From IMG/VR virus record IMGVR_UViG_3300000101_000013, positions 1-62,334 of that record: DNA of 62,334 nt; one strand, 5' to 3'. Every line of letters starts with the position of its first letter. Within the stretch, counting starts at the first letter, position 1. This DNA comes from a virus (lineage: Duplodnaviria; Caudoviricetes). Under the pieces are notes generated by a model. The model saw nothing but the letters and a program-made list of their open reading frames with translations. It searched no databases and was not told where the DNA came from. Of the stretch, positions 44,701 to 60,708 are shown one piece after another. Made by a program: the position numbers and the translations under genes.

Positions 44701-44844
44701 ATCGTATTGGGGAGATGAGTTTTTAACACCAATGCGCTGATTGTTTACATCTAAATATAATAAATCTGTCTCAAATGCTAAATCTATTCCATTACGAATA
44801 AGATTCGACTTTAAGAGCGGACCCGATATGCGACCTACAGCCAT
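41788..44844 (-). CDS. Large tail-fibre-like structural protein with a pectate-lyase-like beta-helix
   Basis: MAVGRISGPLL start; IYVSENGDD...PGVYTEVFPL...RSPYIKN; N.DL.L..NGTG.V repeats; two GTxxxRP/R motifs. Confidence 0.75.
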   Translation of the reverse strand: MAVGRISGPLLKSNLIRNGIDLAFETDLLYLDVNNQRIGVKNSSPQYDLDITGTMRSTNINVDNNLDIANINVTGNTISTSEQYLNLGTLDNIVYQNKARIDGIDIQGNVISTNDSSANLEFRPNGTGEVHVHSDMNVTGNIHATGNITADGDITLGDADTDNLVINADIASNIVPDQSNTYTLGEAGRIWNDVHVNNLYADTVNTTALSIGDIDLTLRQGNIIYVSENGDDAHTGTHPQDPVASIVQGLSLATTGDTVMVTPGVYTEVFPLTIPVGVALKGAGIRSVTIQPTAGTNSNDAILLNGETTVEDLTITGFFSPGYAFRFANNITVTSRSPYIKNITVITAGSVTTAEDPRGFNQGDAGRGILADGSVANAASKEASMLFHSVTFITPGVDALTATNGVRIEWLNSFTYFANKGIHALDGATGLKGDGKTRIRLSGITGTFNAADTVTFTSADASTVQTVTVESVDNDILVVDGKNTNFIGFDTTPQSISNGAGATATTIENVDLADFGAEIRMIGSACVYGNFGIYGDGPGIIVYAIGQNLAYIGNGKEVTNDPGTVIQANEVVELNNAKVRYNSVDHKGDFRVGELFYVNQDAGTVSFTANALTVDLTTGATFTTGGDTSFINGSRIDVGNLRLTGNTLSSTVGDINLNSSSGVINLLDNVDITGNLDVSGDVTIGGNITIGDEGTDSIEIVAGINSNLVPSSTNTFSLGTNTNSWSKLWVSELQVDDVNINTNVITTTSSNADLELRANGTGSVVAEGFTFETNNISTTGDMVFDAGSELINFNSSGAIRLPTGTTAQRTAGVAGELRYNSELARFEGFNGTNWFNLKGVEDINGDTRITAELTEGANDDIIRFYVKNDVVFSVDANGFNANQIEIDNIRIDGNVINTTSGDLDLVLSPNGTGSVVIDNFAIKDNTITHTVPQGIMEFQKTGVNAYYKFDGSYGLVIPVGTSLNRPATPEIGMIRFNTADLRVEVFDGSIWTSVAGLSGAVSSIDATNIAIENVLFMG

Positions 44845-44965
44845 TTTTTCTCCTTATACGGGCATCCTGTGCCTCCAACCTGTTCAAGCATTATGCTTCT
44901 ATCGCTGGTTGACCGCGGTTTGTAAGTGCAAAACAATGGTCGCTGTTTTGCATTATTAGTATTTA
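44845..44965 (-). promoter_or_regulatory. Late-type promoter motif and structured 5' leader
   Basis: TAAATA (44965..44960), then hairpins at 44927-44952, 44886-44898 and 44861-44873 before the AAGGAG RBS. Confidence 0.5.
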
Positions 44966-44989
44966 GTTGTATTTGTAATTTTAGGTGTG

Positions 44990-47911
44990 TTATCCTAGGA
45001 CAATGGACCAAATATTAACCTGGTCTTCTTGATACTCTATAGTTACACTTTCCCCAGCACCTGTAGCTGGGATCCATTCTTGGAATTCACCTTCTTTGTT
45101 ATCAACGCCAGCATACACTTCTAGAGCTTTTACGTCTGCTCTAGCATTGAATCTAGTATCACCAGTTTGTGGATTAGGCCCTCTAGTGTCATTACCACCA
45201 CTTGGCATAACTATTCCTGACGCTCCTCTAAATGCAAAGTACCCGTCATCGGTTACAAATGTCATAGGTCCGCCGTCAGTTATTTCTAAAATGTTATTTT
45301 TTATTTTTAAATCTTCTTGTACAAATTTGCCGTTGCCGTGCATAGCAAATTGTAAATTACTATTTGATACTTCTGTTGAAATAGTGTTGCCATCTAATTT
45401 AATATCATCTACACTAAGAGCTCCAAATAAGATACTGTCGCCTGTTATGTCTGCCATTAATGTAGAAGAATCTATTGCATCTACTGCTCCATTTACTATA
45501 AATCTAATGTTGTTTGATGTAGGATCAGCTGTTACGCTAGTAAGTCTGTCTGAAGAAAATATACCGTTAAATGTTATTGGAGCATTGATAGTTTGTCCTT
45601 CAAATCTGTTTGAATCTGTACTGTATCTAATTGATCCTATTGCAGGCGCACCAGAAGAATCAGCGTTTAACCTTTGTCCGTCTGTGCCTGTAGGCAATTT
45701 AATTGATCCTGTAGTTGCAATGTTAAAATTAGTATTTGTAGTAAAATTTAAATCATCAGCTCTAGTAAAAAGTTTATTTTCATCTACAGCTATATCTTCT
45801 AATAATACCGCGCCAGTGCCTTGAGCTCTAAATTCTAAATCGTTATTTGTTTCAGTAGTTGTTATAAAAGTATCCTGTATCAACACATCATCTGATTGTG
45901 CAGCACTTAACCAGGCTTTTTTCCAAGTCTTACTTGCAAGTCCTAAACTATATGCTCCACTAATATCTGGTACAATATCTTGATCAATTTCTTGTGCAAA
46001 GCTAATTGTATCATTGGCATCATTACCGAATCCTATTGCACTTCCACCAATTGTAAAGTCTCCTGACATTACAACATTACCGGTAACATTTGTATTGTCT
46101 AAAAAGTTTATTATTCCTGCTGCACTATCAACATTAATACTTCCTGGACTACTAAACAATGTATTGTTTGTGATTATAAGATTACCTGTTGATGCTTGTG
46201 CGCCGTTTAAAATACTTGTAGATCCACCGGTTGTAACATTAATTCCGTTGAGTGCATTTACTTGTGCTTCTGTAATAACTATACTTGATTCGCCACTTTC
46301 TAAATCAACAACAAATTGATCTCCAACTCTAAAATTACCTAAATGGTCAGTTGACGAAAAGTAAATATTGCCACTGTTAAGCTCACTGGTTTCTTGTGTT
46401 TGTAAAGCTCTACTAGGATCATTGTCCAAGAATTTACCACTTCCGATATATCCAAAGTTGTGTTGTATTAGATACATAATAGTATCTGCACCGTCGGCTA
46501 CTGCTCCGTAATTTCCGTAAACGTTTGCTGAACCAATAGACCTAATTTCAGCTCCAAACTGTGTTGTTGATCCGTCTGTACTTAAATGACCAGTTACTCC
46601 TCTAACAGCATATAATCCTCTGTTTGCAAAATATGTAAACGAGTTAAGCCATTCAACTCTAACACCATTTGTCATAGTAAGTGCATCAACTCCTGGTGTG
46701 ATAAATGTAACGCTATGGAATAACATACTTGCTTCTTTACTAGCACTTAAAACATTTGCTCCATCAACCAATGCACCTTTACCTGCATCACCTTGTGCAA
46801 AACCTCTAGGGTCGCTTGCACTTGTTACACTACCTGCTGTAATTACTGTTACGTTTTGTATGTAAGGACTTCTACTACTTACAACAGTATTAGATGCAAA
46901 ACTAAATGCATGCCCTGGACTAAAGAAATCTTTTATAGTAACATGTTGAACGGTTGATTCGCCATTCATTAAGAAACAGTTATTTGTATTTGTTCCTGCT
47001 GTTGGTTTAATAATTACACCACGCATGTTATGTCCAACTACACTTACGTTAGTTGGTATTTCTAAAGGAAATACTTCTTCGTATTCTCCAGGAAATATAT
47101 GTATTTCGACTGGTCCTTGTATACTTGCATCAGCTCTTGCTAGTGCTGCTTTGATAGTAAGCATAGGACCTTGTACATTGTCTCCTACTGCTGAATCACT
47201 TCCGTTTTTGCTTACATAAAATATGTTACCTACACGTAATCCAAAATTTGCTGTCTCAGCAAGAATAGCACTTGCTTGAACGGCTTGAGTATTAACTAGG
47301 TTAGTATGTAATTCACCCCATTCTTTGCCAGCACTACCTAAATCATATGTGTCTGTAGTATCAGGTAAAATGTTATTTGGTATGTCAGCATTAATAACTA
47401 AATTATCTTCTGATCCGCTACCTAATGTAATATTTCCGTCAAGGGTTATGTTAGATTGTGAATGTAACCCGCCAAATACTTCTAAATTAGTAGGTATTTC
47501 TGTTGTACCTGTGCCGTTTGGTCTTAGATCAATATTTGAATTTGTATTATAACTTTTAATACTATTATCATTAATTTCAATTTGATCTGTTGCTAATCCT
47601 GATAAATTTATTGTTCCGCCAACAGCTGCTTGTAATACAATTGGAGAATCTAAGGAATTAATGTTACTTCCGTTGCCCCAAGTAAGATTTCCTATTTGTA
47701 ATTGTGTAGATGCGATCATACTAGGCATCTTAGACATGCCTAATACTTGTACTTCGTCAGTTGTTGTGTTTGAATTGAATCCTAATTTAAGAGCTGTTGC
47801 ATCTAAATGAAGGAGAGATGTATCACTAAGTGTGTTTTTAACATTTAAATTAATTCCGTTACGTTCAAGATTTGCTGCTAATAACGGTCCGGATATTCTA
47901 CCTACTGCCAT
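44990..47911 (-). CDS. Large tail-fibre-like structural protein (paralog of 41788..44844)
   Basis: MAVGRISGPLL start; near-identical SKEASMLFHSVTFITPGVDALT.TNGVR.EWLNSFTYFAN block. Confidence 0.75.
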   Translation of the reverse strand: MAVGRISGPLLAANLERNGINLNVKNTLSDTSLLHLDATALKLGFNSNTTTDEVQVLGMSKMPSMIASTQLQIGNLTWGNGSNINSLDSPIVLQAAVGGTINLSGLATDQIEINDNSIKSYNTNSNIDLRPNGTGTTEIPTNLEVFGGLHSQSNITLDGNITLGSGSEDNLVINADIPNNILPDTTDTYDLGSAGKEWGELHTNLVNTQAVQASAILAETANFGLRVGNIFYVSKNGSDSAVGDNVQGPMLTIKAALARADASIQGPVEIHIFPGEYEEVFPLEIPTNVSVVGHNMRGVIIKPTAGTNTNNCFLMNGESTVQHVTIKDFFSPGHAFSFASNTVVSSRSPYIQNVTVITAGSVTSASDPRGFAQGDAGKGALVDGANVLSASKEASMLFHSVTFITPGVDALTMTNGVRVEWLNSFTYFANRGLYAVRGVTGHLSTDGSTTQFGAEIRSIGSANVYGNYGAVADGADTIMYLIQHNFGYIGSGKFLDNDPSRALQTQETSELNSGNIYFSSTDHLGNFRVGDQFVVDLESGESSIVITEAQVNALNGINVTTGGSTSILNGAQASTGNLIITNNTLFSSPGSINVDSAAGIINFLDNTNVTGNVVMSGDFTIGGSAIGFGNDANDTISFAQEIDQDIVPDISGAYSLGLASKTWKKAWLSAAQSDDVLIQDTFITTTETNNDLEFRAQGTGAVLLEDIAVDENKLFTRADDLNFTTNTNFNIATTGSIKLPTGTDGQRLNADSSGAPAIGSIRYSTDSNRFEGQTINAPITFNGIFSSDRLTSVTADPTSNNIRFIVNGAVDAIDSSTLMADITGDSILFGALSVDDIKLDGNTISTEVSNSNLQFAMHGNGKFVQEDLKIKNNILEITDGGPMTFVTDDGYFAFRGASGIVMPSGGNDTRGPNPQTGDTRFNARADVKALEVYAGVDNKEGEFQEWIPATGAGESVTIEYQEDQVNIWSIVLG

Positions 47912-47942
47912 GATGTCTCCTTATGCAGTAGTATTTATTGCT

Positions 47943-48476
47943 TTACTTGTCAAAGTTATGTAGTACAGTAATAGGTTTTGTTAAATCTGGAGCTGATCCA
48001 AATTTAATATACCAGCCGTCTGCATATGGTTGATTAGGACCGACTAAATTTCCGCTTACACTCTGTACTAACGTATAGTTTGTTGTTGCTATTTGAAAAA
48101 CATTTTCTACAAATACAAGAACATTTTGAGCTGCTGCTGGAACTGGATAATCTGCATCACCGCTTGCTAGTGGTCCAAAAACAGTTTCTGTTGCATCTCC
48201 GTTACCTAAATTTTGTTGCGTAATACCCGGATCTTGATTTGGTTCTTTAAAACGTATTTCTCTCCAGGCTCCGTTTTGATATGATTCAAATTGATCATCG
48301 TCAGTATTATATCTTAGATGTCCGTTATTTGGAGTTGTTGGTCTTTGTGCTTCAGTTCCTTTAGGAACAAGCATAGTATTTGTACTATCAAAAATAACCT
48401 GACCATTGACATCATACTTAACTCCGTTTCCGTAAATATTACGTAGGTTAGTATTTTGTGCTTTGAGTAATCTCAT
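47943..48476 (-). CDS. Structural protein (baseplate/fibre-associated)
   Basis: GTEAQRPT.P..GHLRYNTD motif; GNGD...F...VLVFVENVFQ...F..AP domain. Confidence 0.65.
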   Translation of the reverse strand: MRLLKAQNTNLRNIYGNGVKYDVNGQVIFDSTNTMLVPKGTEAQRPTTPNNGHLRYNTDDDQFESYQNGAWREIRFKEPNQDPGITQQNLGNGDATETVFGPLASGDADYPVPAAAQNVLVFVENVFQIATTNYTLVQSVSGNLVGPNQPYADGWYIKFGSAPDLTKPITVLHNFDK

Positions 48477-48478
48477 TA

Positions 48479-48814
48479 TTACACTTCCAAATAACTTATT
48501 GTTACAGCAAGATTAGTTAAATTTGCTCCAATATCTGGTGCAGCAACAAAGCTAACTAAATCGCCAGCTTCTAAAACTATTCTTTCTGAATCAAATGTAA
48601 ATGTTTCTCCTGCTGGTAGTACTAAATTGTTTACAATTCTAGTCACAGAGTTATTAAGTGCTACTCCGCTTGGTAAAAAGTGTAAATCAAAGTTTGCAGA
48701 ATCAACGCTACTATTATTACAAACCATTATATTTGTAATAGCATATCTTTTACCTGACGGTACTGTAATAACATCTAGTTGTGTATTTGTTAGTTGTGCG
48801 TTTACGATTGCCAT
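48479..48814 (-). CDS. Small beta-rich virion protein (paralog family)
   Basis: ITVPSG..YAITNIMVCN...LPAGETF..DSERIVLEAGD...ISYLEV. Confidence 0.65.
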   Translation of the reverse strand: MAIVNAQLTNTQLDVITVPSGKRYAITNIMVCNNSSVDSANFDLHFLPSGVALNNSVTRIVNNLVLPAGETFTFDSERIVLEAGDLVSFVAAPDIGANLTNLAVTISYLEV

Positions 48815-48823
48815 ATTGTTTCC

Positions 48824-49879
48824 TTAAAAGAGCATTCCGAACAGTAATGCTCTATTTTTACTTACTAGTTCGTCTGTTACATTGTTTTTATTTACATAAT
48901 ATAAGCCAACATTGCCTTCACTGTCGGCTGTATTTTTTGAAAATATTTTTATTCCATCACTAGGTACTGAAGGTGTTGCTGATAGATCATCGTCAAAAGG
49001 AGATCCAGTTAATACCATTGAATCTTTAACTATAACAGATCCTGTTCCAGGTGCTGATAAAAATAAATCATCATCTGATATTGTAGTAGATATTTCATTT
49101 TTTTGTATTTTTATATCAGCAAGTTCTAATCTGTTACTATAAATATTTCCAATCAAAGTATTGTCTACTTTTATCTCTACTGTACTTTCAACTCCGGTTG
49201 TGTCTTGATCTCTTGTTTTTACAGAAGTATCATTATCAACAATACCCGGCTGTAAAATATTTGCAAAACTATATGTAATATAATCCTGCACAGATTTTAC
49301 TGTTGTTAATCCATCATCATTTAATGATACAACTCCGCCACCTGGGTCAGTAATTACAAAGTCATTTGCAACAGCATCGAACGCATAATTAAAAATATTA
49401 CGTTCATAATTTACTGTACCACTAACATCTATCATAGATGCTGGTGTTGTAATATATAATCGTCCTTCGGCATTAATACTATTTGTTGCAAAAGGCAAAG
49501 TTGTTCCTGTTGCATCTTGTAATTTAAAAGATCCTGTTCCGCTTGATCCGCCTGTGGCAAACGGTGTCTGTTCATTAAAAACTATTCTTGCTGCAGGTAG
49601 TGAACCTCTATCAATTTCTACACCTGCTATATAACCAGCTGATGCACTTATTCCTGCACCAGACTCGCCTTCGTTTAGTGTAATAATATTATCAGCAATA
49701 GTAGTAACGGTTGATTCTACTGTAGTTTGTGTTCCTTTTACTTCAAGATCACCGTTAATAACAATAGTTCCTTGAACAGCAGAATTACCATCAGTAGTAT
49801 CTAAAGTAATAGTGCCTGCTGCTCCATTACTAACAGTAATTTTATAATTACCACCAGTTACTTTTTCTATTTTTGACAT
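48824..49879 (-). CDS. Virion structural protein
   Basis: GDLEVKGTQTTVEST..TIADNIITLN...AGVEIDRG motif, common in fibre proteins of large myoviruses. Confidence 0.65.
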   Translation of the reverse strand: MSKIEKVTGGNYKITVSNGAAGTITLDTTDGNSAVQGTIVINGDLEVKGTQTTVESTVTTIADNIITLNEGESGAGISASAGYIAGVEIDRGSLPAARIVFNEQTPFATGGSSGTGSFKLQDATGTTLPFATNSINAEGRLYITTPASMIDVSGTVNYERNIFNYAFDAVANDFVITDPGGGVVSLNDDGLTTVKSVQDYITYSFANILQPGIVDNDTSVKTRDQDTTGVESTVEIKVDNTLIGNIYSNRLELADIKIQKNEISTTISDDDLFLSAPGTGSVIVKDSMVLTGSPFDDDLSATPSVPSDGIKIFSKNTADSEGNVGLYYVNKNNVTDELVSKNRALLFGMLF

Positions 49880-49895
49880 TTACAAATCCTTAAAT

Positions 49896-49922
49896 TGTTG
49901 TGGGGAACTTGCCCCCACAACA
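49896..49922 (-). terminator. Intergenic hairpin, probable terminator or processing stem
   Basis: 10-bp inverted repeat TGTTGTGGGG...CCCCACAACA; weak U tail. Confidence 0.5.
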
Positions 49923-49935
49923 TTTATATCTTACT

Positions 49936-50553
49936 TTAAGTTGCTTGTGCATCAACAACAATGCCGCCACTTTCAGTCGCCGCTTTAGTTGCTACACCAT
50001 CTGATGTATAACCAGTAAAGCCACTACTATCAACACCATCTAATTCGAAAGTGTTAGTTGTTTTATTTGCCACTGTGTATGCAGTTTCAAGGTTAAGCTC
50101 AACCATTCCAACTACGCCACGGATAGATACTTTATCTCCGTTGCTGAAGCCGTGTCCAGTTGCTGTGATAACACATGGATCTGCCGCTGTTGCACCTGAA
50201 ATAACTTTTTCAATTGCTGAACTTGTTCCTGTAGCTGATCTTGCCCACTTGTGTTTTGTTGCGCCTTCAAGTTGCATTTTTCTGTTGAACATTTTTGTAA
50301 TCTGTTTAGTAACACCGTCACTGTCAGTTACGTTAATGCAAAATTCACTAGCACCTAAACCTCCAATTGACTTGTTAACCAATGTACAAGTTTCTGTTTT
50401 GTTTCCATCAGTAACAATAAATTTATTTGTTGATCTTTGTTTTACAATGTGTGACTCAGTAGTAATTTCTCCACCAGCTGCAAATTTAACTGCTGTTACT
50501 TGGATTTTACCGGCTCCGTCACCAATGTGTTTTTTATTAATTGGTCTTCCCAT
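49936..50553 (-). CDS. Late structural protein with an E1-FCCH-like beta domain
   Basis: Start reassigned to MGRPINKK (AAGGAG RBS). ISGAT.A.PCVIT...HG.SNGD.V.I.GVVGM.ELN domain, also present in the 741-aa protein. Confidence 0.65.
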   Translation of the reverse strand: MGRPINKKHIGDGAGKIQVTAVKFAAGGEITTESHIVKQRSTNKFIVTDGNKTETCTLVNKSIGGLGASEFCINVTDSDGVTKQITKMFNRKMQLEGATKHKWARSATGTSSAIEKVISGATAADPCVITATGHGFSNGDKVSIRGVVGMVELNLETAYTVANKTTNTFELDGVDSSGFTGYTSDGVATKAATESGGIVVDAQAT

Positions 50554-50555
50554 TT

Positions 50556-50647
50556 GTTTTCTCCTTTTAAAACGTTCTAGGTTTACGCAGTGGGTCATTT
50601 CTGCATAAGTCCGCATGATGCGGCACGATTATTGACACAAGTATTTA
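50556..50647 (-). promoter_or_regulatory. Late-type promoter motif and structured leader
   Basis: ATAAATA near 50647, then hairpins CCGCA/UGCGG (50611-50623) and UUAUGCAG/CUGCGUAA (50583-50608). Confidence 0.45.
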
Positions 50648-50656
50648 TCAAATAGA

Positions 50657-51133
50657 TTAAGTACGGTGTTTTAGTTTCTCTAGTACTAGTTTTTCTACAA
50701 TATAAAATGAACTAACGTATAACAGTGTGCTCAACAACGTCATATGAAAGAACGGTATTGCCGCTATATAACATGTTAATAAGCCTGCAAGAGTTAGTCC
50801 GTAGTATCCACTAGTCCATATTGCAAAGTTAGTTATAACAAAAAACAATATAGGACCCGCAAATGTTATTGATAACAGTTTAATTTTTGTTGCTAGTAGC
50901 GTACACATTATGATACTACTATAAGTCCATATCATGTAACCATGAAGTCCCCAATATATATCTGCTATAAACATAGCAAGTAATATAGCACATATTGCCG
51001 TCGGAATGTGCTTTATAATTCTTGGAGCAAAAACAGCGACAGCAATAATAGGTGTAAAATTAGGTGGGTGTGGTATAATTCTACTAAGTGCTAATACAAA
51101 TACAAATCCTAAAAACCAATATATATTATTCAT
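50657..51133 (-). CDS. DUF6580-like inner-membrane transporter (ECF S-component/BtuM-like)
   Basis: Hydrophobic 158 aa with SRIIPHPPNFTPI...FFVITNFAIW...CYIAAIPFF; TAATG-coupled to the TonB receptor gene. Confidence 0.7.
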   Translation of the reverse strand: MNNIYWFLGFVFVLALSRIIPHPPNFTPIIAVAVFAPRIIKHIPTAICAILLAMFIADIYWGLHGYMIWTYSSIIMCTLLATKIKLLSITFAGPILFFVITNFAIWTSGYYGLTLAGLLTCYIAAIPFFHMTLLSTLLYVSSFYIVEKLVLEKLKHRT

Positions 51134-52869
51134 TACATTACTATTCTAATACCAGCCTGGAAGTTTATTCCCATTTGGTTGTATCCATCTGGTTGTTCAT
51201 ACTTCTCATCTGTAATATTATATAGTCCTAGATAAAACATTTTGTTTTCATGTGTTTGATTTAATTCTAAATCAAACGTAGTTATACTACTTTTATCTAT
51301 TGTTTTAAAAGTTGAACTATCGATGTCTTTGTGGTCACCATAATAATTCATTGACGCTTTGTAATTTAGATCATCTATATTTTTAGAAATACCGGAACTG
51401 TTAGTCCAAGCAGGTCTACGTAACTTTTCATCACCGTTATTTAATTTTGCTTCTGTATAAGTTACATTAGAATCAAAAATATACCCGCTATAATCTTTAC
51501 TATAACTTACTTCAGCACCTTTGCTTGTTCCGCCGCCTGTAATATTAGTATATGTAGAATTAGCATATGTGATTGAATTAGTTTCTTCAATATAAAATAA
51601 TGCTGTATCAAAGTTGCCTATCTTATAACCTATTTCATATGAGTCAATATCTTCAGCATTTAAGTTTGGATTACCATTATATCCATAACTGTCTATACCA
51701 TACATTTCATATAATGTTGGTAATCTATAACCTTGTGAGTAACTTGCTCTTAAATGATCAAATGATATTCCTATTCTTGAACTAAGTTTGCTATCAAAAT
51801 CACTAATGCTATCATATCTACTACTAAAACTTAGAACAGTTCCTAGATAGTATTCTTTATCAACTTCAAAGAACAATCCTGAAACATATCTATTTTCTTT
51901 AACACTACTTTGATAACTGTTTATATTTGTTGCAAAGTCTGCACTTGCTTCATTGTATTCCCAACCTACGGAATAATCATATGAGTCTTTATTAAAAGTA
52001 TGCTGTGTTAAATATGTATTACTTTCACTGTTGTATTTGTCAACTACTCCGTTTTTAGTATATGTTCTATCATGTTTACTATTGTTTAGGACTACTCTTG
52101 TATTTTTGGTTTGGAAATCTATTTGGTTGTTATTCCATTCCCAATCACCTGTATAATTTAATACATCTGCTGATCCGCTATCAAGACTCATATCATTTTT
52201 GTCTTTAATTTTGTTTAGTTTAAGAATGTATTTGTTTCCTATGTAATCATAACCAATATTAAATGTATTTGCTTCATGTGGATCTTTTTCTTCACCTTGT
52301 GCGTATACACTTACACCATCTGTTGTTGTTTGATTAGCAGTAACTTTAAAATTATGTCTATCAGTTTGATCTTTATCAACTACACTTATTTCTTTGCTGA
52401 TAAGATTATTAGAGCCTATACTAACATCTATATAACTATTTCCATATGTACTTGAGTGCATATCAATAACACCGCCTGCCGCATTAGGCCCGTGTGCGTT
52501 GCTCATAGGACCCTTTATAACTGTCAAATAGTCTATTCCTATCAAGTTATGTTGACTAAAATCATCTGCTCCACTAGGTGTGCTATGGTCTTTGATTACA
52601 ATTCCGTTTAACGTAATTAAACTGTGATCGCTTTCGGTACCTCTAATAAACAAACTACTTGATTGTCCTGGAGGTCCATTTTGTACAATACTAACTCCAT
52701 TAGTCGTTTCAACTGGAGTGTCAACACCTATAATATCATATGAATATGTTCTAGTTGCTAAGTCACTTGCTGTTCTTGGAATTGTTATTGTTATTTCTAA
52801 AGGTTCGGCCAAACTTTGGCCACAAAAAAACACGGTAAGAACCGTGACTAACAATATTATTTTATTCAT
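51133..52869 (-). CDS. TonB-dependent outer-membrane receptor, BtuB-like
   Basis: Signal peptide; plug VQNGPPGQSSSLFIRGTESDHSLITLNG (compare BtuB FIRGTNASHVLVLIDG); KGP.S..HG..A.GGVI; PTLYEMYG...GNPNL; RRP; NITDEKYE. Confidence 0.8.
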   Translation of the reverse strand: MNKIILLVTVLTVFFCGQSLAEPLEITITIPRTASDLATRTYSYDIIGVDTPVETTNGVSIVQNGPPGQSSSLFIRGTESDHSLITLNGIVIKDHSTPSGADDFSQHNLIGIDYLTVIKGPMSNAHGPNAAGGVIDMHSSTYGNSYIDVSIGSNNLISKEISVVDKDQTDRHNFKVTANQTTTDGVSVYAQGEEKDPHEANTFNIGYDYIGNKYILKLNKIKDKNDMSLDSGSADVLNYTGDWEWNNNQIDFQTKNTRVVLNNSKHDRTYTKNGVVDKYNSESNTYLTQHTFNKDSYDYSVGWEYNEASADFATNINSYQSSVKENRYVSGLFFEVDKEYYLGTVLSFSSRYDSISDFDSKLSSRIGISFDHLRASYSQGYRLPTLYEMYGIDSYGYNGNPNLNAEDIDSYEIGYKIGNFDTALFYIEETNSITYANSTYTNITGGGTSKGAEVSYSKDYSGYIFDSNVTYTEAKLNNGDEKLRRPAWTNSSGISKNIDDLNYKASMNYYGDHKDIDSSTFKTIDKSSITTFDLELNQTHENKMFYLGLYNITDEKYEQPDGYNQMGINFQAGIRIVM

Positions 52870-52874
52870 AATGT

Positions 52875-52903
52875 ATTTTATATTCTAAAGAAAGATTTGT
52901 CAA
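52875..52903 (-). promoter_or_regulatory. Sigma70-like promoter for a probably leaderless receptor mRNA
   Basis: TTGACA-N17-TAAAAT ending 5 nt before the ATG; no Shine-Dalgarno sequence. Confidence 0.6.
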
Positions 52904-52904
52904 G

Positions 52905-52929
52905 AAAAAAGACTCCAAAGAGCCTTTTT
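52905..52929 (-). terminator. Rho-independent terminator after the structured RNA
   Basis: AAAAAGGCUC-UUUG-GAGUCUUUUUU on the minus strand. Confidence 0.65.
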
Positions 52930-52934
52930 AAAAT

Positions 52935-53151
52935 ATAAGCAAAATAGGTAGGACTTGGGTACACCTACAAGCACGGACCGAAATACCATTTCTAAACCGT
53001 ACAACCTGTCCCCGCGGGTTAGTGCGATGTGACTCAGCGTATTTCTACTACCAAGCCTGGGTACCACCCCTGGACAGTCAAGTTCGACTCTTTTGGTAGG
53101 AGCCTCTTCCTTGCACTATAAACAAAAAGTAATTAGTTTTTTGTTGCTTAT
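52935..53151 (-). ncRNA. Unclassified structured non-coding RNA (~215 nt)
   Basis: GC-rich and without a listed ORF; own promoter and terminator; ends pair (AUAAGCAA/UUGCUUAU); several internal stems. Confidence 0.6.
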
Positions 53152-53157
53152 GTACTT

Positions 53158-53186
53158 AATATAACAGACTTTATTCATAAAGTCAA
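53158..53186 (-). promoter_or_regulatory. Sigma70-like promoter of the structured RNA
   Basis: TTGACT-N17-TATATT; the predicted +1 (~53151) coincides with the 5' end of the closing stem. Confidence 0.65.
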
Positions 53187-53205
53187 CCTCTTTTTTACCA
53201 AAATA

Positions 53206-53358
53206 TTAAATTTTTTGTAATCTAGGGTCTGTACTAAGTATGTTCTTTTCAGCTCTTGGTCTAGATAAACGATTTTCAGCCATTTTGCGTATTATTGCTT
53301 TATGTGCTAGTTCGGTTTTTCTTTTTTTGCGAGCTATTTCGAAGTCTTTGTAGTTCAT
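53206..53358 (-). CDS. 50-aa basic peptide downstream of the glutamine riboswitch (not in the ORF track)
   Basis: MNYKDFEIARKKRKTELAHKAIIRKMAENRLSRPRAEKNILSTDPRLQKI; GAGGAG RBS upstream. Confidence 0.75.
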   Translation of the reverse strand: MNYKDFEIARKKRKTELAHKAIIRKMAENRLSRPRAEKNILSTDPRLQKI

Positions 53359-53383
53359 TGACACTCTCCTCGTTAAAGTTAAG

Positions 53384-53430
53384 TGCGTTCCTTCGCTAAT
53401 GCTACTTCCGGGCTTGACGCCTGAACGTTG
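53384..53430 (-). ncRNA. Glutamine riboswitch (glnA RNA motif, glutamine-I)
   Basis: CGUUC-AGGC-GUCAA-GCC-CGGAAGUA-GC-AUUA-GC-GAAG-GAACG: P1 CGUUC/GAACG, a P2 stem, and the E-loop GGAAGUA...GAAG as in the glnA motif consensus. Confidence 0.8.
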
Positions 53431-53435
53431 TATTA

Positions 53436-53807
53436 TTATTTAGTATCTAGAACCTGAATAAATTCATTTTCTCTATCCAAATATTTGAAGTCGATCTTTA
53501 CTGGATCAAACTTATCTAGTGCATCAAATACTATACGTGTGTCTAAATCACCACAAGTATAGACATCTAATTGGATTAATTTTGGCGATTGTTCGTCCCA
53601 TATGTGTATTGCTACGTGTGATGTTTCAATAATAGTAACACAAGTAAATCCTTTGTTACCTTCTATATCACAATACTTAACATAAGGTCCCATCATAATC
53701 TTCATACCAATGTCTCTAATTAAATTAGAAGCCCAATCAGTAATAGTTTGTTCGCATATTGGAGGATTACTTACTTCTGCTCGTACTATTAAATGTTTAT
53801 GTTTCAT
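53436..53807 (-). CDS. speD: S-adenosylmethionine decarboxylase proenzyme
   Basis: KHLIV...GFTCVTIIETSHVAIHIWDE...LDVYTCG, with the pyruvoyl self-cleavage SH motif. Confidence 0.88.
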   Translation of the reverse strand: MKHKHLIVRAEVSNPPICEQTITDWASNLIRDIGMKIMMGPYVKYCDIEGNKGFTCVTIIETSHVAIHIWDEQSPKLIQLDVYTCGDLDTRIVFDALDKFDPVKIDFKYLDRENEFIQVLDTK

Positions 53808-53827
53808 AAGTTTTTGTTTATGTATAA

Positions 53828-53856
53828 TTTATACCTTATTTGACACAAAAAGTCAA
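53828..53856 (-). promoter_or_regulatory. Sigma70-like promoter of speD
   Basis: TTGACT-N17-TATAAA directly after the capsid gene terminator. Confidence 0.6.
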
Positions 53857-53871
53857 CCAGAAAATTTAGTC

Positions 53872-53900
53872 AAAAAAATAGGCGCCGTAGCGCCTATTTT
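53872..53900 (-). terminator. Rho-independent terminator after the major capsid gene
   Basis: AAAAUAGGCGC-UACG-GCGCCUAUUUUUUU. Confidence 0.85.
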
Positions 53901-53919
53901 AGTATTTCTATTTAACGAC

Positions 53920-55092
53920 TTAGCTGAAGCTTACGTTAGCAATGCTAACACGAGCTAGATAGTCTGCTGCGTTACCTAATGAACTTGCAGTGTTGTTTAG
54001 CTCAACATATCCGTATCTAGTCATGAAACTCACAACTGGCTCGAATGATGTTGGATCTAATACAACGCCACTTGACATTAGTGGGATATATGGGCAATAG
54101 AACGCTGCTGCGTCTGATTCGCTTGATCCTTTGTAACCTACAAGTACGTCTTGTGCATCAGCAGCATATGTGTTTACATATACTTTCATTGCATTGTTTA
54201 AAGTACCAACCATTTTAGTGTTAGTTGGAGCTTCAAAAGTGCCTTCAGTTGTTCTTGCAAACGCTGAAGTTGTTGCTGATTGAAGTACTGTTAATGCAAA
54301 CGGACTCACAACTGCCCAGTTACCTGCGCCTCTACGTGTACGTTGTGCAATTTTGTTACTTGCGCGGTTGATCATAACTGCTAATGCAGCATGCTCGTCA
54401 CCTACGAAAGTAGCTGTACCTGACACACCAGCTTGATCATACTGAGTATCTGCTTCAGCTGTTCCTGCTAATGTATATAGGCTACCAAGTACTTCTTGGT
54501 CAATCTCAGCTGTAATTTCTTGAGCCAAAGCAGCCATAATTTCTGCTTCAACATCAATACCATGCTGTGATTGTGCGTCTTGTGCAGACTCAAAAGTCCA
54601 ACGAGCTGATAGCTTTCTGGATTTTGCTTCTACAGTTTGCTTCAAGATTTGAATTGACATCTTGTTACCAGCTTCACCTTCTAGTGCTGCTGTTGATGCC
54701 GCTGTTCCTGCTGTTGCACCTGAGTACGCTTCAGCAATCTTGAACGGTGATAGTGCTTCTTCACCAGCTACAGTACCGCTTGCGCCTGTACCTACTGTAT
54801 CCGAATAACGAACACGTAGCGTGTGAATTTGCCCTACTGGGCCAGTCATAGGCTGAACACCAACGATTTCATTAGCAATGACTGTTGGCATTACACGTCT
54901 GATGACGGGTAAAATAACTCTGTTAAGAGTTGCGACGTTACCGGCGGATGTTGCGCCTGCGCCTGCAGTTTCTGACAAATACTTACGTGTATTTTCCAGT
55001 GTTGCTGACATTACAGATTTCTTTGTGCCTGATAGGCCTTCAAGAAGTGCGCTCTTGGTATCCAGCCAGCGACTTTCTAATAGTTCTGACAT
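53920..55092 (-). CDS. gp23: Major capsid protein (T4 gp23-like)
   Basis: IVGVQPMTGPVGQI, VEAKSRKLSARWT.E.AQD, EITAEID.E, FYCPYIPL, F.TRYG. Confidence 0.95.
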   Translation of the reverse strand: MSELLESRWLDTKSALLEGLSGTKKSVMSATLENTRKYLSETAGAGATSAGNVATLNRVILPVIRRVMPTVIANEIVGVQPMTGPVGQIHTLRVRYSDTVGTGASGTVAGEEALSPFKIAEAYSGATAGTAASTAALEGEAGNKMSIQILKQTVEAKSRKLSARWTFESAQDAQSQHGIDVEAEIMAALAQEITAEIDQEVLGSLYTLAGTAEADTQYDQAGVSGTATFVGDEHAALAVMINRASNKIAQRTRRGAGNWAVVSPFALTVLQSATTSAFARTTEGTFEAPTNTKMVGTLNNAMKVYVNTYAADAQDVLVGYKGSSESDAAAFYCPYIPLMSSGVVLDPTSFEPVVSFMTRYGYVELNNTASSLGNAADYLARVSIANVSFS

Positions 55093-55102
55093 AGTTTTCT
55101 CC

Positions 55103-56194
55103 TTAATTTAAACCAGCTAAACGTCTAATGTCAACGACATTATCGTCTTGCTTTGAACTAACGTTAGTTTGTTTTCTATTGCCTGTGATTTCTGTGCCTT
55201 CTGTAATTACTGCCTTCTGCTTCGCTGGAGATTTACCATCAATTACTGACGGTAGGTACTTGTCAAATGCAGATTGTAGTCTGTTTGTTTGTACTGATTC
55301 CAGTAAATCTGTCATGATTTCTTGTTCTGCTCTGTTTAGTGGGCTTAACAATCCATCAATAGTTTCTTTGCGCTCAGCGACTAGTGCCATACGCTTAACT
55401 TCGTTCGCCTTAGACTCAGCTAATACTTTTGCTTTTGTTGCAAATGCTTTTGCTTCAACTAGTTGTTTGTCTTTAACTGCGACTACATTCATAAGTTTAG
55501 CAACTTCTGAATTTTCATTCAGGTGACTAGTTGCGTACTCTGATGCAAACGCTTCAAACATTTTGCGACCGAAATCGTTCTTACGTGCTTCATTGATATC
55601 TTCTTTTAATGCGCTGATTTCACCTTTTAGAGTTGTTTCAACGATTTTCGATACCTTGTTAGCACCTTTCGCAATAAAGTCTTTTTTGACTTCAGCAAAT
55701 TTACTTTTAGCTTCTTTTATAAGTTTTACCTTAGTTTCAGCTAAATCTTTTTTGTCTTCATGGAACTCTGCAATTTCTTTAGCAAGTGCATCGACAATAA
55801 AGTTCTCAAGCATGCTGAACTTATCAGACATTGCTTTTTGATCTTCATGTAACTCAGAAACTTCTGTCTTTAGTGATTCTAAAACAAATTTTTGCATTAA
55901 TTTTGCGTCTTCACGCATTTTAACAGCATATTTTGCTTTAGCTTCAGCTAGTTGTTTGCGATCTTCTGCAAACTCAGATATTTCTTCAGCTAAACGCTCT
56001 GAGATCATAGCATCGATAGCTTCAACCATAGTTGATTTATCATGCTCATATTTCTTAGCAAATTCTTCGCGAAGTTCAGCAGTTGCCTGCTGACGATTCT
56101 CTTTGATTTTGCTTTCCCATGCGCCTTCGATTTCAGCACGTACTTCTTCAGAAACTACATCGTTTTCAAAAAGTGTTTTAAGTGCGTCCAACAT
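55103..56194 (-). CDS. Prohead scaffold/core protein (gp22-like)
   Basis: Coiled-coil, charged; lies between gp21 and gp23; GRKMFEAF motif. Confidence 0.8.
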   Translation of the reverse strand: MLDALKTLFENDVVSEEVRAEIEGAWESKIKENRQQATAELREEFAKKYEHDKSTMVEAIDAMISERLAEEISEFAEDRKQLAEAKAKYAVKMREDAKLMQKFVLESLKTEVSELHEDQKAMSDKFSMLENFIVDALAKEIAEFHEDKKDLAETKVKLIKEAKSKFAEVKKDFIAKGANKVSKIVETTLKGEISALKEDINEARKNDFGRKMFEAFASEYATSHLNENSEVAKLMNVVAVKDKQLVEAKAFATKAKVLAESKANEVKRMALVAERKETIDGLLSPLNRAEQEIMTDLLESVQTNRLQSAFDKYLPSVIDGKSPAKQKAVITEGTEITGNRKQTNVSSKQDDNVVDIRRLAGLN

Positions 56195-56208
56195 ATTATG
56201 TTCTCCTT

Positions 56209-56841
56209 TTATTGGAGTCTACTGATTATATTAATCAGAGATTCTTTTAAGTATTTTTGTGCCTTTGAGTCGTGTTTTGTAGCCTGTGCAAGTTCGTATG
56301 CCTTCATTCCTCCACGTGCATTCATTAAATGTTCGTAGATTGGTGTAGGATACGCACCAGGGGCGCTAGGCTGAGCCACAACGTCCACAGTGATTATTTC
56401 AAAATCAGAGACTTCATTACTTCCGTCTTCTGATACGTTTCCGCTACCACGCGATGAAACACCTAGTTTCACACCATTTTGTATCATAGTGCTTACTAAC
56501 TGTCCCATCGGAGTTGGTAGAATTTTTAATTTACCATAACCGTTTGCGCCATCCATCCAACATTCGTTGATCATATGACTCACGCGGTCTAAGTTAATGT
56601 TAAGTCCTTCTGGATGATCAACTTCGCCGAGAACTGAATATCCTCCAGTGATTTGATCATTGAGAGTTTTGACAGCCCTACCAATTTCGTTTACAGGATA
56701 TACACGTTGGTTTGCGTTACGCACTCCACCTTGTATACAAATACCTTTCATGTAAAGATCTTTGCCCCCACTGGCGTTATCGGTAGACTCAACGACTATG
56801 TTAGCCTGGTCGAATGTCAGATGCTCTCGTAAGTTTATCAT
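56209..56841 (-). CDS. gp21: Prohead protease (gp21-like)
   Basis: GICIQG..RNANQRVYP, LGEVDHP, ILPTPMG, LGVSSRGSG, DVVAQPSAPGAY. Confidence 0.92.
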   Translation of the reverse strand: MINLREHLTFDQANIVVESTDNASGGKDLYMKGICIQGGVRNANQRVYPVNEIGRAVKTLNDQITGGYSVLGEVDHPEGLNINLDRVSHMINECWMDGANGYGKLKILPTPMGQLVSTMIQNGVKLGVSSRGSGNVSEDGSNEVSDFEIITVDVVAQPSAPGAYPTPIYEHLMNARGGMKAYELAQATKHDSKAQKYLKESLINIISRLQ

Positions 56842-56857
56842 TTAAAGTTCCTTAACC

Positions 56858-57832
56858 TTATTTGCCAACAACAGATTTTTTGTTGTCAGCTGTGTCGCCT
56901 GCGCCTTTTTTCTCTGCGCCGTGGCCTTTTGGCTGTGCTTTCATGCTTTTTGATGCTTTGCCGCCTGGAACATTAACGTTACCAGCTGTTTCATCTTTTG
57001 TAGATGTTCCTGCTAGTCCGCCTTCTGTGCCGCCGTTTCCGCCGTCTGCATTCTGCGCCAAGTTTGAAGCAGTTCCGCCCATGTTGTTTGCACCAGCTAC
57101 AGTTGACTTAGTGTTTGCACCGTTGTCGCCCATTTTTGCTGTTACTTTTTCAACATATTCACGCATTGTTTCTGCTTCTGATTTAGTTGATTCGTCAGTT
57201 TCTTCGTCTGCTGCTTCTTCAACTTCTTCATCGTCTGATGCTTCGTCGACTTCTTCGTCTGATGCTTCAAAAGCTACTGCTTCGTCTGCTTCATCTTCGT
57301 CGCCTTCTTCGCCGTCCATGTCTGGCATTTCTTCGTCGCCACCATCTTCGTCGCCCATCATTTTTTCAAATTCTGCTTTTAGATCATCTAAAGCAACTTC
57401 TAGATCGTCAACACGATCTTCAACATCGCCTTCGCCTTCAGCATCTGGTTCCATGTCCATGTCCATATCCATGTCGCCGCCTTCTGCGTCTCCATCCATG
57501 TCCATGCCCATTTTGTCCATCATATCGTCTGCTGGATCACCACCTTCAACTTCAAACTCGTCTAAGTTAAAGTCTTCGTTAGTTTCTTCTTTGTCATCAT
57601 CATCATCTGATGCTTCATCTACTTCTTCATCTGATGCTTCATCTACTTCTTCATCTGATGCTTCATCTACTTCTTCGTCAGTTGTTTCATCAACTTCTAG
57701 ATCTGACTCTAATAGTCCTTCGTAGATATCTCTTGATTTTTCAACCACTATTTCGTGGAATAATTCTTCTGCTCCAGCTTTGTCTTCGTTGACTAGCTTT
57801 TCGAGCATTTCTTCAAATTTGTTACTCGCCAT
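56858..57832 (-). CDS. Highly acidic prohead core / internal protein
   Basis: Asp/Glu/Met-rich low-complexity protein between portal and protease, in the gp67/gp68 position. Confidence 0.65.
   Translation of the reverse strand: MASNKFEEMLEKLVNEDKAGAEELFHEIVVEKSRDIYEGLLESDLEVDETTDEEVDEASDEEVDEASDEEVDEASDDDDDKEETNEDFNLDEFEVEGGDPADDMMDKMGMDMDGDAEGGDMDMDMDMEPDAEGEGDVEDRVDDLEVALDDLKAEFEKMMGDEDGGDEEMPDMDGEEGDEDEADEAVAFEASDEEVDEASDDEEVEEAADEETDESTKSEAETMREYVEKVTAKMGDNGANTKSTVAGANNMGGTASNLAQNADGGNGGTEGGLAGTSTKDETAGNVNVPGGKASKSMKAQPKGHGAEKKGAGDTADNKKSVVGK
57603..57674. repeat. Three perfect 24-nt tandem repeats encoding EEVDEASD
   Basis: TCATCTGATGCTTCATCTACTTCT x3; degenerate copies at about 57200-57270. 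Confidence 0.85.
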
Positions 57833-57915
57833 TATTTTCTCCTATAAATTGTTGTACCTATGGTAAGGCTGTCCATTGTATTTAACGTATAAGGGAAAAA
57901 GTGTATAGAAATAGG

Positions 57916-57936
57916 TTCAAAACGACTCGTTTTGAA
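57916..57936. other. Intergenic inverted repeat
   Basis: TTCAAAACG-ACT-CGTTTTGAA just after the stop of 57941..58699. Confidence 0.5.
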
Positions 57937-57940
57937 GAGA

Positions 57941-58699
57941 TCAGAGCAATGCAAACTGTTTTTTGAATTCCTCTACAGTAATTGTACTGTAGTTTTCAAG
58001 TTTATTTAGTTCCTCAGGACAATAATTATCTGGTATTATAACACGTATAAACTGAGTTTTTTCATGTTCTTTTACAACACTTTGGGTTTGTCTTAACCAA
58101 TTTCCAAAAAATGTTGCAGTATCTTGTGACTTTTTATAGTTAGGTGTATCAGCATATAAGTTATTAAACTTTTGACCATCTTTTAATCCCTTATAATCAA
58201 ACCCTAATATATAAATCCTTTTATGTCTGTGTTGTGCTGATAGCCATAATGCTGTAGGTCCACTTGACCAGCCTTTGCCAGGTTGAAAATAATTAAAATG
58301 CTGTAGTCCTTCATAGGATTTGTTATAGTTTGTCCATACTTGATTTTTTTGTTGATACATAGACTTATTAATTTCTAATATCATTTTAACATCAACAGCA
58401 ATTAAATAATCTGATCTAAATGTTCTATACAAAGCATTACACCCATATACTGGTCCATACTTTTTTAGTTCTTGAGGTTCTATACTTGATCTGCTTAATC
58501 CATTACCTAAGACAAACGCTGCGTTTTGATTGTGAGCAAATCTACTTTCGTCTACTATTTCATTCTGAAGAAAGTCTATTGGTTTAGATCGTTTGGCGTA
58601 TTCTACTTTTTTGTCATGCGACATTTTTTCCAAGCGTCTAATTTCCATTAAACGTGTTGCTTCTTGTTTAGAATACCTAGTCTTATCTAGTTTTGCCAT
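57941..58699 (-). CDS. Rossmann-like protein (DUF115/Maf/sialyltransferase-like) inside the head module
   Basis: FVLGNGLSR...YGCNALYR...YLIAVD...WSSGPTA...IYILGFD. Confidence 0.55.
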   Translation of the reverse strand: MAKLDKTRYSKQEATRLMEIRRLEKMSHDKKVEYAKRSKPIDFLQNEIVDESRFAHNQNAAFVLGNGLSRSSIEPQELKKYGPVYGCNALYRTFRSDYLIAVDVKMILEINKSMYQQKNQVWTNYNKSYEGLQHFNYFQPGKGWSSGPTALWLSAQHRHKRIYILGFDYKGLKDGQKFNNLYADTPNYKKSQDTATFFGNWLRQTQSVVKEHEKTQFIRVIIPDNYCPEELNKLENYSTITVEEFKKQFALL

Positions 58700-58947
58700 T
58701 AAACACCGGCAGCGGCTGCTTGCGCTGCTATTCCATACATTTGTCTTACGAAGTCTAGTTCGTCAGCCTTCTCATTTGTATGTAGCTCGCTTGCTTTCCT
58801 TGCACGGTTAATTTGGCGTAGGGTAAGTCTTGTTTTTCTTGTATCATCAAAATCAACAATTGAATCATCATATTGTGGCTCGTAGCGATGGTCGTCTACA
58901 GGCTCAACAGTTTCTTTATCGTAATAAAATAATTCTCTTAATATCAT
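58699..58947 (-). CDS. Small head-module protein
   Basis: 82 aa, DTRKTRLTLRQINRARK; canonical TATAAATA at 58960..58953. Confidence 0.7.
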   Translation of the reverse strand: MILRELFYYDKETVEPVDDHRYEPQYDDSIVDFDDTRKTRLTLRQINRARKASELHTNEKADELDFVRQMYGIAAQAAAAGV

Positions 58948-58955
58948 AATACTAT

Positions 58956-60707: not shown

Positions 60708-60708
60708 T

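Follow-up and report, generated by a model that had tools for sequence, protein, structure and literature searches.

A divergent manA RNA with complementary loops, probably transcribed on its own, in a T4-like marine phage

The manA RNA motif was described in 2010 by Weinberg et al. (PMC2864571); the parts of that paper drawn on here report it from marine metagenomes, T4-like cyanophages and two gamma-proteobacteria, describe the genes that follow it as concerned with mannose or fructose, nucleotides, chaperones and photosynthesis, and rate it as cis-regulatory and a probable riboswitch with a doubtful pseudoknot. The alignment of the family, RF01745, was revised in Rfam release 14.3 (PMC7779021), and a 2020 survey of pelagimyophages gives, in the portion drawn on, no riboswitch-type RNAs by Riboswitch Scanner (PMC7029224). 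Our literature searches on manA RNA and RF01745 brought up no report of a ligand or of an in vivo function. According to the main text of a July 2026 cryo-electron microscopy (cryo-EM) preprint (10.64898/2026.07.01.735769), this orphan RNA is able to build a 60-subunit, icosahedral-like shell in vitro, besides decamers and an octamer, from pentamer building blocks whose molecules are linked by the kissing loops L5-L7' and L8-L9', with one variant using L3-L8' and a GNRA-receptor contact (L6-P6' GNRA); neither 'covari' nor 'in vivo' occurs in that main text, the supplements lying outside this check. Here we analyze a copy of this RNA in a stretch of 62,334 nucleotides (nt), hereafter the window (positions 1 to 62,334 of the IMG/VR virus record IMGVR_UViG_3300000101_000013), where an earlier reading made from the letters alone (the sequence-only reading) had noticed a stand-alone structured RNA of unrecognised class and had considered it a possible regulator of the downstream B12-uptake genes. 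With moderate confidence, we favor viewing the element as the manA RNA copy of a T4-like marine phage, expressed as its own small transcript and acting as a self-assembling RNA in trans, rather than as a ligand-sensing leader for B12 uptake.

The class assignment stems from a full-model match. Rfam manA (RF01745) aligns to positions 52938-53143 of the minus strand over model positions 1-192 of 192, with 49.9 bits and an E-value of 1.1e-11 for the 801-base stretch 52700-53500, or 8.4e-10 for the whole window. The curated gathering cut-off of the family is 55.2 bits, leaving the window copy 5.3 bits under it, and the default Rfam scan of the window is therefore silent on manA and lists only a glutamine riboswitch and a freshwater-2 RNA. 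When 52700-53500 was scanned with E up to 10, only manA, Glutamine and a chance match to UPD-PKib were listed, with no match to any cobalamin riboswitch model, and ARAGORN found 0 tRNA or transfer-messenger RNA (tmRNA) genes in the window, in agreement with the sequence-only reading, which had set aside tRNA, tmRNA and the cobalamin riboswitch. All consensus manA helices occur in order in the window (5' hairpin, closing stem, P3, P4 with P5-P7, P8 and P9). Among 50,697 cultured phage records searched by blastn, the sole relative is Pelagibacter phage Mosig, at 75% identity (82% mean column identity in pairwise alignment), and its copy scores 64.0 bits against manA, over the cut-off.

To widen the comparison, IMG/VR was searched with two short patterns built on positions at which the window and Mosig agree, yielding 65 and at least 120 loci, respectively, and at least 168 from both scans; the copy counts below are among the matches listed. 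The full sample comprises at least 169 loci, of which 143 have full flanks; these yield, with the window among them, 85 different sequences of 222 nt, aligned as A2 with a mean column identity of 78%. Twenty-six of the IMG/VR loci were picked for an Rfam scan by diversity and size, and nine reach 55.2 bits (5/12 in one set, 4/14 in the other); in the first set 11/12 score 40.2-67.5 bits against manA, with E no higher than 0.001, L089 giving no manA match in that scan. Counting the window, Mosig and these 26 loci, 10/28 reach the cut-off and 18/28 lie below it, and relatives scoring above it (L006 with 67.5 bits, L071 with 61.9 and L139 with 59.8) align readily with the window in A2. The Rfam threshold cuts through this manA clade, and the Mosig copy stands unannotated. 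The element is almost certainly a manA-family RNA, a somewhat divergent member of an already described family: the class is known, and this copy is a new member. The proposed novelty has accordingly to be given up, as the Rfam search that the sequence-only reading itself named as decisive in substance returned manA, though below the cut-off.

We then assessed the fold on the Rfam manA structure placed on the window row, to which we added a further end-closing stem (P0), the extension of P6 and, on trial, two loop-loop helices; helix numbers are our own, counted 5' to 3'. Across A2, 93.6% of 6198 cells are paired, compared to 80.8% in shuffles (0/500 reach the observed value), and 48 of the 74 pairs change on both sides versus 33.7 in shuffles (again 0/500), while slid controls yield 31.6-48.6% paired cells and 17-23 pairs changing both sides. 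Each of the 12 nested helices contains at least one pair changing both sides among the 85 sequences, and RNAalifold on A2 predicts 48 pairs, 36 with a compensatory change. Covariation among homologs, another check suggested at the outset, is thus present, and it extends to several pairings picked out by eye, since CUGUCC/GGACAG, the GAAA-capped hairpin, GUACGG/CCGUGC with GAAA/UUUC inside, and GUAGG/CCUAC all display compensatory changes. The end-closing stem of 8 base pairs (bp) also recognized there, our P0, is present in the window, outside the Rfam manA model; three of its five tested pairs change both sides, with support coming from two positions (A-U in 64 sequences versus U-A in 18, and C-G in 78 versus U-A in 3, G-C in 1 and U-G in 2). 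The fold shown by covariation has P1 as a hairpin on the 5' side and P2 as the stem that closes the junction; P4 and P5-P7 make up a four-way multistem, and P3, P8 and P9 are hairpins. Single-sequence folding yields z = -1.87, with 10/200 shuffles folding as well, which is too weak alone; with the promoter evidence from the single sequence being weak too, the case rests on the comparison with relatives.

Two further pairings from the sequence-only reading, UAGUGC/GCACUA and CUACCAA/UUGGUAG, can be formed in the window and are unsupported by the relatives: 75.9% of the cells pair, compared to 76.0% in shuffles (410/500 reach the observed value), and 1/13 pairs changes both sides. In this covariation test of competing pairings on A2 no conserved alternative fold was supported. 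Of the pseudoknots or switch imagined for the RNA, the loop-loop complementarity is real, and no conserved second fold was found in that test.

This complementarity concerns L5 with L7 and L8 with L9. Among the 85 sequences the L5/L7 words are GUGGUA/UACC (30 sequences), GUUGU(C/G/U/A)/GACA (11), GUUAUA/GAUA (2), GUUGCA/GGCA (1) and GUAGUA/ACUA (2), and the degree of complementarity is reached by 1/2000 shuffles; for L8/L9 it is reached by 76/2000, with two relatives carrying GGAA together with UUCC. In the window itself, UGGUA of L8 and UACC of L9 offer 4-5 pairs. The words of the Rfam consensus differ and are yet complementary, with UGGU/ACCA for L5/L7 and UACUGUA/UACAGUA for L8/L9. As read from aligned relatives, both loop pairs are shown to be complementary, predicted contacts that have been kept through sequence change. 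The complementarity of L3/L5, L3/L8, L5/L9 and L7/L8 was not above that of shuffles (269, 248, 1955 and 1442 of 2000, respectively), and a fixed-register L3/L5 helix was rejected, as 0/5 pairs change both sides. Separately, in the clade with a gp32 gene downstream (for example L075, L085 and L088), the GNRA of P6 is replaced by a loop with UUACC(A), an extra word complementary to L5 and L8 that may change the assembly of this variant.

The RNA lies in a GC-rich island, as had been noted (0.455 at 52900-53099 against 0.30-0.34 in the flanks), bounded by the promoter and the U-tailed terminator that the sequence-only reading had pointed out. A promoter scan by itself is at chance (60 sites versus 64.4 expected from shuffles, 44000-62334), and a simple terminator scan does not list the hairpin, while an RNAfold-based rule does; it is therefore the relatives that have to carry the case for a promoter and a terminator. 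There, TTGANN-N16-18-TANNNT ends 5-9 nt before P0 in 140/167 listed copies, compared to 3/1700 random points in the same loci, and the site is also conserved in Mosig with the same spacing. Similarly, a hairpin with a U-run lies no more than 70 nt behind the RNA in 102/145 listed copies versus 78/1700 random points in the same loci, the 102 terminated copies displaying 31 different hairpin sequences. The terminator is in all cases clear of the RNA helices, and the A-run ahead of its hairpin pairs with the U-tail. Directly behind it follows, in the window, a second promoter-like site, the -10 of which ends 5 nt before the ATG of a TonB-dependent receptor gene; TTGACA and a -10-like hexamer 5 nt before the ATG are kept in three other loci of the TonB type, and TTGANN occurs at the U-run in 76/102 terminated listed copies.

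Collectively, the covariation together with the conserved promoter and terminator upholds the notion of a discrete, structured, non-coding phage RNA. Judging from the conserved signals, the RNA is probably an independent transcription unit of about 247 nt in this phage. Host sigma70 RNA polymerase would start near 53151, at the foot of the 5-8 bp P0 that joins the 5' and 3' ends, and the terminator would end the transcript, releasing a free-standing RNA, while the receptor gene, being one of many interchangeable cargo genes at that position, would use its own promoter. By analogy with the manA RNAs of the 2026 cryo-EM study, the RNA would then assemble with itself via L5/L7 and L8/L9 kissing loops. 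RNA-library contigs from 4/4 marine runs compared (4 studies) cover the RNA, for example a 347-nt contig across 52899-53163, and 15 RNA-labelled rows contain 21-35% of the sampled words from the 801-base stretch; as these are assemblies, they provide a weak hint. Some contigs part from the window at 53151-53163 and near 52899-52932, which fits other phages with the same RNA and different flanks and is no proof on transcripts, and the low or absent cover of the TonB gene in 3/4 runs carries no evidential weight. The positions of all features are collected below.

Features of the manA locus, its neighborhood and selected relatives (window positions unless a locus is named)
Feature	Position	Strand	Basis or remark
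manA-family RNA, 215 nt between P0 strands	52936-53150	minus	Rfam match and covariation
P0 (5' UAAGC with GCUUA 3')	53150-53146/52940-52936	minus	
P1	53145-53138/53128-53121	minus	
P2	53119-53116/52947-52944	minus	
P3	53113-53110/53082-53079 and 53104-53100/53090-53086	minus	
P4	53077-53072/53011-53006	minus	
P5	53070-53068/53061-53059	minus	
P6	53057-53046/53041-53031	minus	
P7	53027-53024/53015-53012	minus	
P8	53002-52997/52976-52971 and 52992-52989/52983-52980	minus	
P9	52968-52964/52952-52948	minus	
L3, CUACCAAAA		minus	carries UACCA
L5, GUGGUA	53062-53067	minus	complementary to L7
L6, GAAA tetraloop on extended P6	53042-53045	minus	GAAA or GAGA cap in most of the 85 sequences
L7, ACUAACCC	53016-53023	minus	one extra A in the window-type variant; GGU/ACC left as contiguous L5 match
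L8, UGGUA	52984-52988	minus	complementary to UACC in L9
L9, UGUACCCAAGU	52953-52963	minus	partner of L8
Predicted sigma70-type promoter, TTGACT-N17-TATATT, TG before -10	53158-53186	minus	10/12 matches; +1 predicted near 53151
Predicted intrinsic terminator, AAAAA-GGCUC-UUUG-GAGUC-UUUUUU	52905-52929	minus	RNAfold-based rule, -7.6 kcal/mol
Second promoter-like site, TTGACA-17-TAAAAT	52875-52903	minus	11/12 matches; directly behind terminator
TonB-dependent receptor gene	51133-52869	minus	Pfam Plug and TonB_dep_Rec_b-barrel; context, not read as RNA target
DUF6580 gene behind receptor	50657-51133	minus	Pfam
Freshwater-2 RNA	50551-50625	minus	53.2 bits, cut-off 49.9
226-amino-acid open reading frame, E1_FCCH domain	49936-50616	minus	weak PHROG 'major tail protein' match
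52-codon very basic open reading frame	53206-53364	minus	behind glutamine riboswitch
Glutamine riboswitch	53382-53429	minus	44.2 bits, cut-off 35
S-adenosylmethionine decarboxylase gene	53436-53807		near RNA
gp23-type capsid gene	53920-55092	minus	closest to jumbo phages, 67-69% identity
tmRNA gene, L075	4516-4781		locus without terminator behind manA
tmRNA gene, L085	2105-2378		locus without terminator behind manA
tmRNA gene, L001	1587-1925		locus without terminator behind manA

Several observations weigh against a free-standing, self-assembling RNA. The window copy falls short of the gathering level of RF01745, and its L5 and L7 share 3 contiguous pairs only (GGU/ACC). The copies are akin to one another, such that the fractions count sequences rather than independent events and the shuffle counts overstate significance, and loop covariation cannot separate intra- from intermolecular contacts. 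Equating the window loops with L5, L7, L8 and L9 of the preprint is our inference, based on the 5'-to-3' count of helices and the GNRA on the sixth helix, and assembly was, in the portion of the preprint used, seen in vitro at about 3 mg/mL RNA and 10 mM Mg with other manA sequences. A strict full promoter is found behind the terminator in 14/102 terminated listed copies, and 43/145 listed copies have no terminator by the RNAfold-based rule; these include all 21 copies ahead of gp32, the 3 ahead of rubrerythrin and the 3 ahead of peroxiredoxin, in which the RNA sits leader-like 16-99 nt before the start codon. The manA family is hence not always free-standing. As for the RNA-library contigs, they reveal no ends, strand or level, some run upstream past the promoter, and DNA is possible as their source.

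Against this background, we rate the chance that self-assembly of the RNA is relevant in the cell, an argument by analogy, as close to even or slightly lower. A bolder proposal sees in the locus a phage gene devoted to an RNA particle that assembles itself, made from a host-type promoter and set free by its own terminator, whose loop complementarity is selected since pentamer-based shells act in infected cells, for instance in sequestering a host factor or small molecule; this appears rather doubtful at present. If true, the covariation of the interface loops would be the first evolutionary evidence for an RNA-only cage as a biological entity, and the label 'cis-regulatory' would be wrong for most manA copies. 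In either case, the genomic anatomy, with its own promoter at the foot of P0, a terminator, swapped genes and co-varying loops, bears on both in vivo assembly and the riboswitch question.

The genes behind the RNA are informative in this regard. Applying a rule of an ATG-initiated open reading frame (ORF) of at least 40 codons starting within 330 nt, a same-strand gene follows in 139/145 listed copies, and these genes represent 18 groups without relation to one another: a tail-like E1_FCCH protein (40 copies, 34 with terminator), an unknown protein of 139 amino acids (aa) (22, 20 with terminator), gp32 (21, none), mannose-6-phosphate isomerase/cytidylyltransferase (11, all), an unknown 95-aa protein (10, all), a cold-shock protein (8, 3 with terminator), an unknown 244-aa protein (7, all), the TonB receptor (4 of the 145, namely the window, L039, L137 and L149, all), rubrerythrin (3, none), an unknown 200-aa protein (3, all), peroxiredoxin (3, none) and seven singletons, one a radical-SAM protein (7, 5 with terminator). 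The window-type order is glutamine riboswitch, small ORF, manA, variable slot, freshwater-2 leader and E1_FCCH gene, where the slot is empty in L018, L014 and L053, contains one ORF in L008, L010 and L068, and the TonB receptor with the DUF6580 gene in the window. Considering the variable slot and the unrelated downstream genes, the RNA is a fixed landmark beside a cargo slot and not a partner of B12-type genes. The receptor, on the strand of the RNA and 66 nt further on, is separated from it by the terminator and the promoter-like site, and is only weakly BtuB-like (TIGR01779, 132 bits versus a cut-off of 599.7). With the receptor present in so few copies, these signals in between and no cobalamin match, the idea of a regulator of the B12-uptake genes can be dropped.

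A cis-acting riboswitch or attenuator in a more general sense, where the fold, under the control of a ligand or condition, would decide on read-through at the terminator into the receptor gene, is in our judgment unlikely. This is the original proposal of 2010 for manA, at least in the sections of that paper used here (cis-regulatory and probably a riboswitch; PMC2864571), and it would account for the same-strand gene behind nearly every listed copy and for the 27 leader-like copies ahead of gp32, rubrerythrin and peroxiredoxin. Moreover, the arms of the window terminator, GGCUC/GAGUC, repeat the inner strands of P3, so that an alternative pairing is possible. An aptamer followed by a terminator is also a common expression platform of riboswitches. 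However, the 18 downstream groups share no common pathway, a new promoter-like site stands behind the terminator, and the terminator overlaps no helix of the RNA while its sequence varies freely between 31 hairpins. The alternative fold is without covariation support, the literature found reports no ligand for manA, and no other riboswitch model matches here save the separate upstream glutamine riboswitch. A conserved anti-terminator was considered and rejected, as the arms equal inner P3 in the window but bear no relation to P3 in L010, L068, L071 and L089.

Alternatively, the RNA could be a structural 5' module without a function in trans, that is a stable, end-paired leader or boundary by a hyperplastic region of cassette swapping, with the oligomers being a by-product of in vitro conditions. 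P0 indeed pairs the extreme 5' end, the RNA adjoins the slot of variable gene content, the gp32-type copies are leader-like, and the junction of terminator and promoter is reminiscent of the PeSLs by which T4-like phages shuffle cassettes, as far as the part of that work used here goes (PMC4122927). Nine helices, conserved loops and loop-loop covariation nevertheless far exceed what a protective 5' stem calls for, and in 102/145 listed copies the terminator severs the RNA from the downstream message; we consider this explanation quite improbable. Finally, a new class unrelated to manA, a chance GC-rich island or a coding gene of 55 aa (ORF 52900-53067, minus strand) is scarcely credible, as the score below the Rfam cut-off, the silent default scan and the overlap of this ORF with the element are set against the full-model E-value, close relatives over the cut-off, compensatory change in 48/74 pairs and single-base indels among homologues of the RNA.

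Returning to the manA RNA as a separate phage transcript, its likeness to described systems can be specified. Classical manA (RF01745), known here through the Rfam consensus lines as blastn brought no cyanophage copies, shares the nine consensus helices, AGUG after P2, the GGUGGU loop and the complementary L5/L7 and L8/L9, as well as T4-like marine phage carriers and varied auxiliary genes downstream, including mannose-6-phosphate isomerase. In contrast, the clade of the window adds P0, has a P6 that is about 15 nt longer with a GAAA cap and a 5-nt deletion in P3, and exploits UGGUA/UACC in L8/L9 instead of the consensus words; its carriers are jumbo-phage-like and pelagimyophage-type contigs rather than cyanophages, and most copies are a separate gene with its own promoter and terminator. 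The cryo-EM RNAs manA_A0F1 (60-mer) and manA_67AA, manA_pho_A28C, manA_pho34_A767 and manA_6FAB (decamers or octamers) belong to the same family. The window maintains the L5/L7 and L8/L9 complementarity and the GNRA on the sixth helix that form the pentamer interfaces in the preprint text used here, whereas its clade uses GGUA/UACC for both loop pairs and UACCA in L3, and partner choice may differ. The two are likened by loop description and not by sequence, assembly having been seen there and only sequence read here.

In phage Mosig (EXVC030M, MT647606.1) an unannotated, intergenic manA copy resides at 108165-108391 with the promoter spacing of the window, yet without a terminator, with rubrerythrin annotated about 22 nt behind the Rfam match and in the neighborhood of a replication module and tmRNA. 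T4-like phages carry PeSLs, motifs that combine a terminator with a promoter (Comeau, Arbiol and Krisch 2014, PMC4122927); measured against the part of their description available here, window positions 52929-52875 are alike in that an early-type promoter comes directly after a stem-loop terminator, at the margin of a gene-swapping region, and unlike in that PeSLs repeat many times per genome while a single copy of the junction word TTTTTYTTGAC is present in the 62-kb window (about 20% of the genome). All RNA features of the window, and the genes in this part of it, are on the minus strand. Other orphan structured RNAs, some phage-associated, form RNA-only multimers as well, namely ROOL, GOLLD and OLE; these measure several hundred nt, belong to other families with other symmetries and have no known sequence relation to manA.

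The phage itself is probably large and T4-like. Genes for a T4-type portal, prohead protease and gp23 capsid protein (gp20, gp21 and gp23) are adjacent to the RNA, in line with the occurrence of manA in marine T4-like phages, the record being an IMG/VR virus. Relatives of the capsid protein belong to the jumbo phages Phosso (Sinorhizobium, 469 kb), Vibrio 2.275.O (349 kb) and PA5oct (Pseudomonas, 287 kb), and together with the estimated 20% completeness of the IMG/VR record this suggests a whole genome of roughly 300 kb. A pelagimyophage identity of the window was consequently dropped, the capsid protein being closest to jumbo phages.

The receptor and the DUF6580 gene constitute a two-gene cargo within the structural region of the phage, and by tblastn the receptor has no full-length counterpart in the 50,697 cultured phage records (3 matches, 14% coverage). 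The same pair of signals is observed in L039, L137 and L149. No Shine-Dalgarno sequence is visible before the receptor ATG, and use of the second promoter would give a message with little or no leader. Further on, 23 nt into the receptor coding sequence, in the region of the signal peptide, a terminator-like hairpin CACGG-UUCUUA-CCGUG with U7 is located at 52831-52846 (minus strand); L039, L137 and L149 retain its stem with altered bases in the loop. The hairpin may serve as an attenuator or simply reflect a constraint on the coding sequence.

Upstream, the glutamine riboswitch is likewise present ahead of manA in 9/26 scanned IMG/VR relatives. In cyanobacteria, glutamine riboswitches control small glutamine-synthetase inactivating factors. 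By analogy, the ORF at 53206-53364, without a match in Pfam, PHROG or NCBIfam, may encode a phage counterpart of such a factor. In gp32- and rubrerythrin-type loci, and likewise in Mosig, alphaproteobacterial (permuted) tmRNA genes are found 2-3 kb from manA. Downstream of the cargo slot, the freshwater-2 RNA is the leader of the 226-aa E1_FCCH gene, covering the ribosome site and the ATG, and this pairing recurs in L018, L014, L008, L053, L068 and L010.

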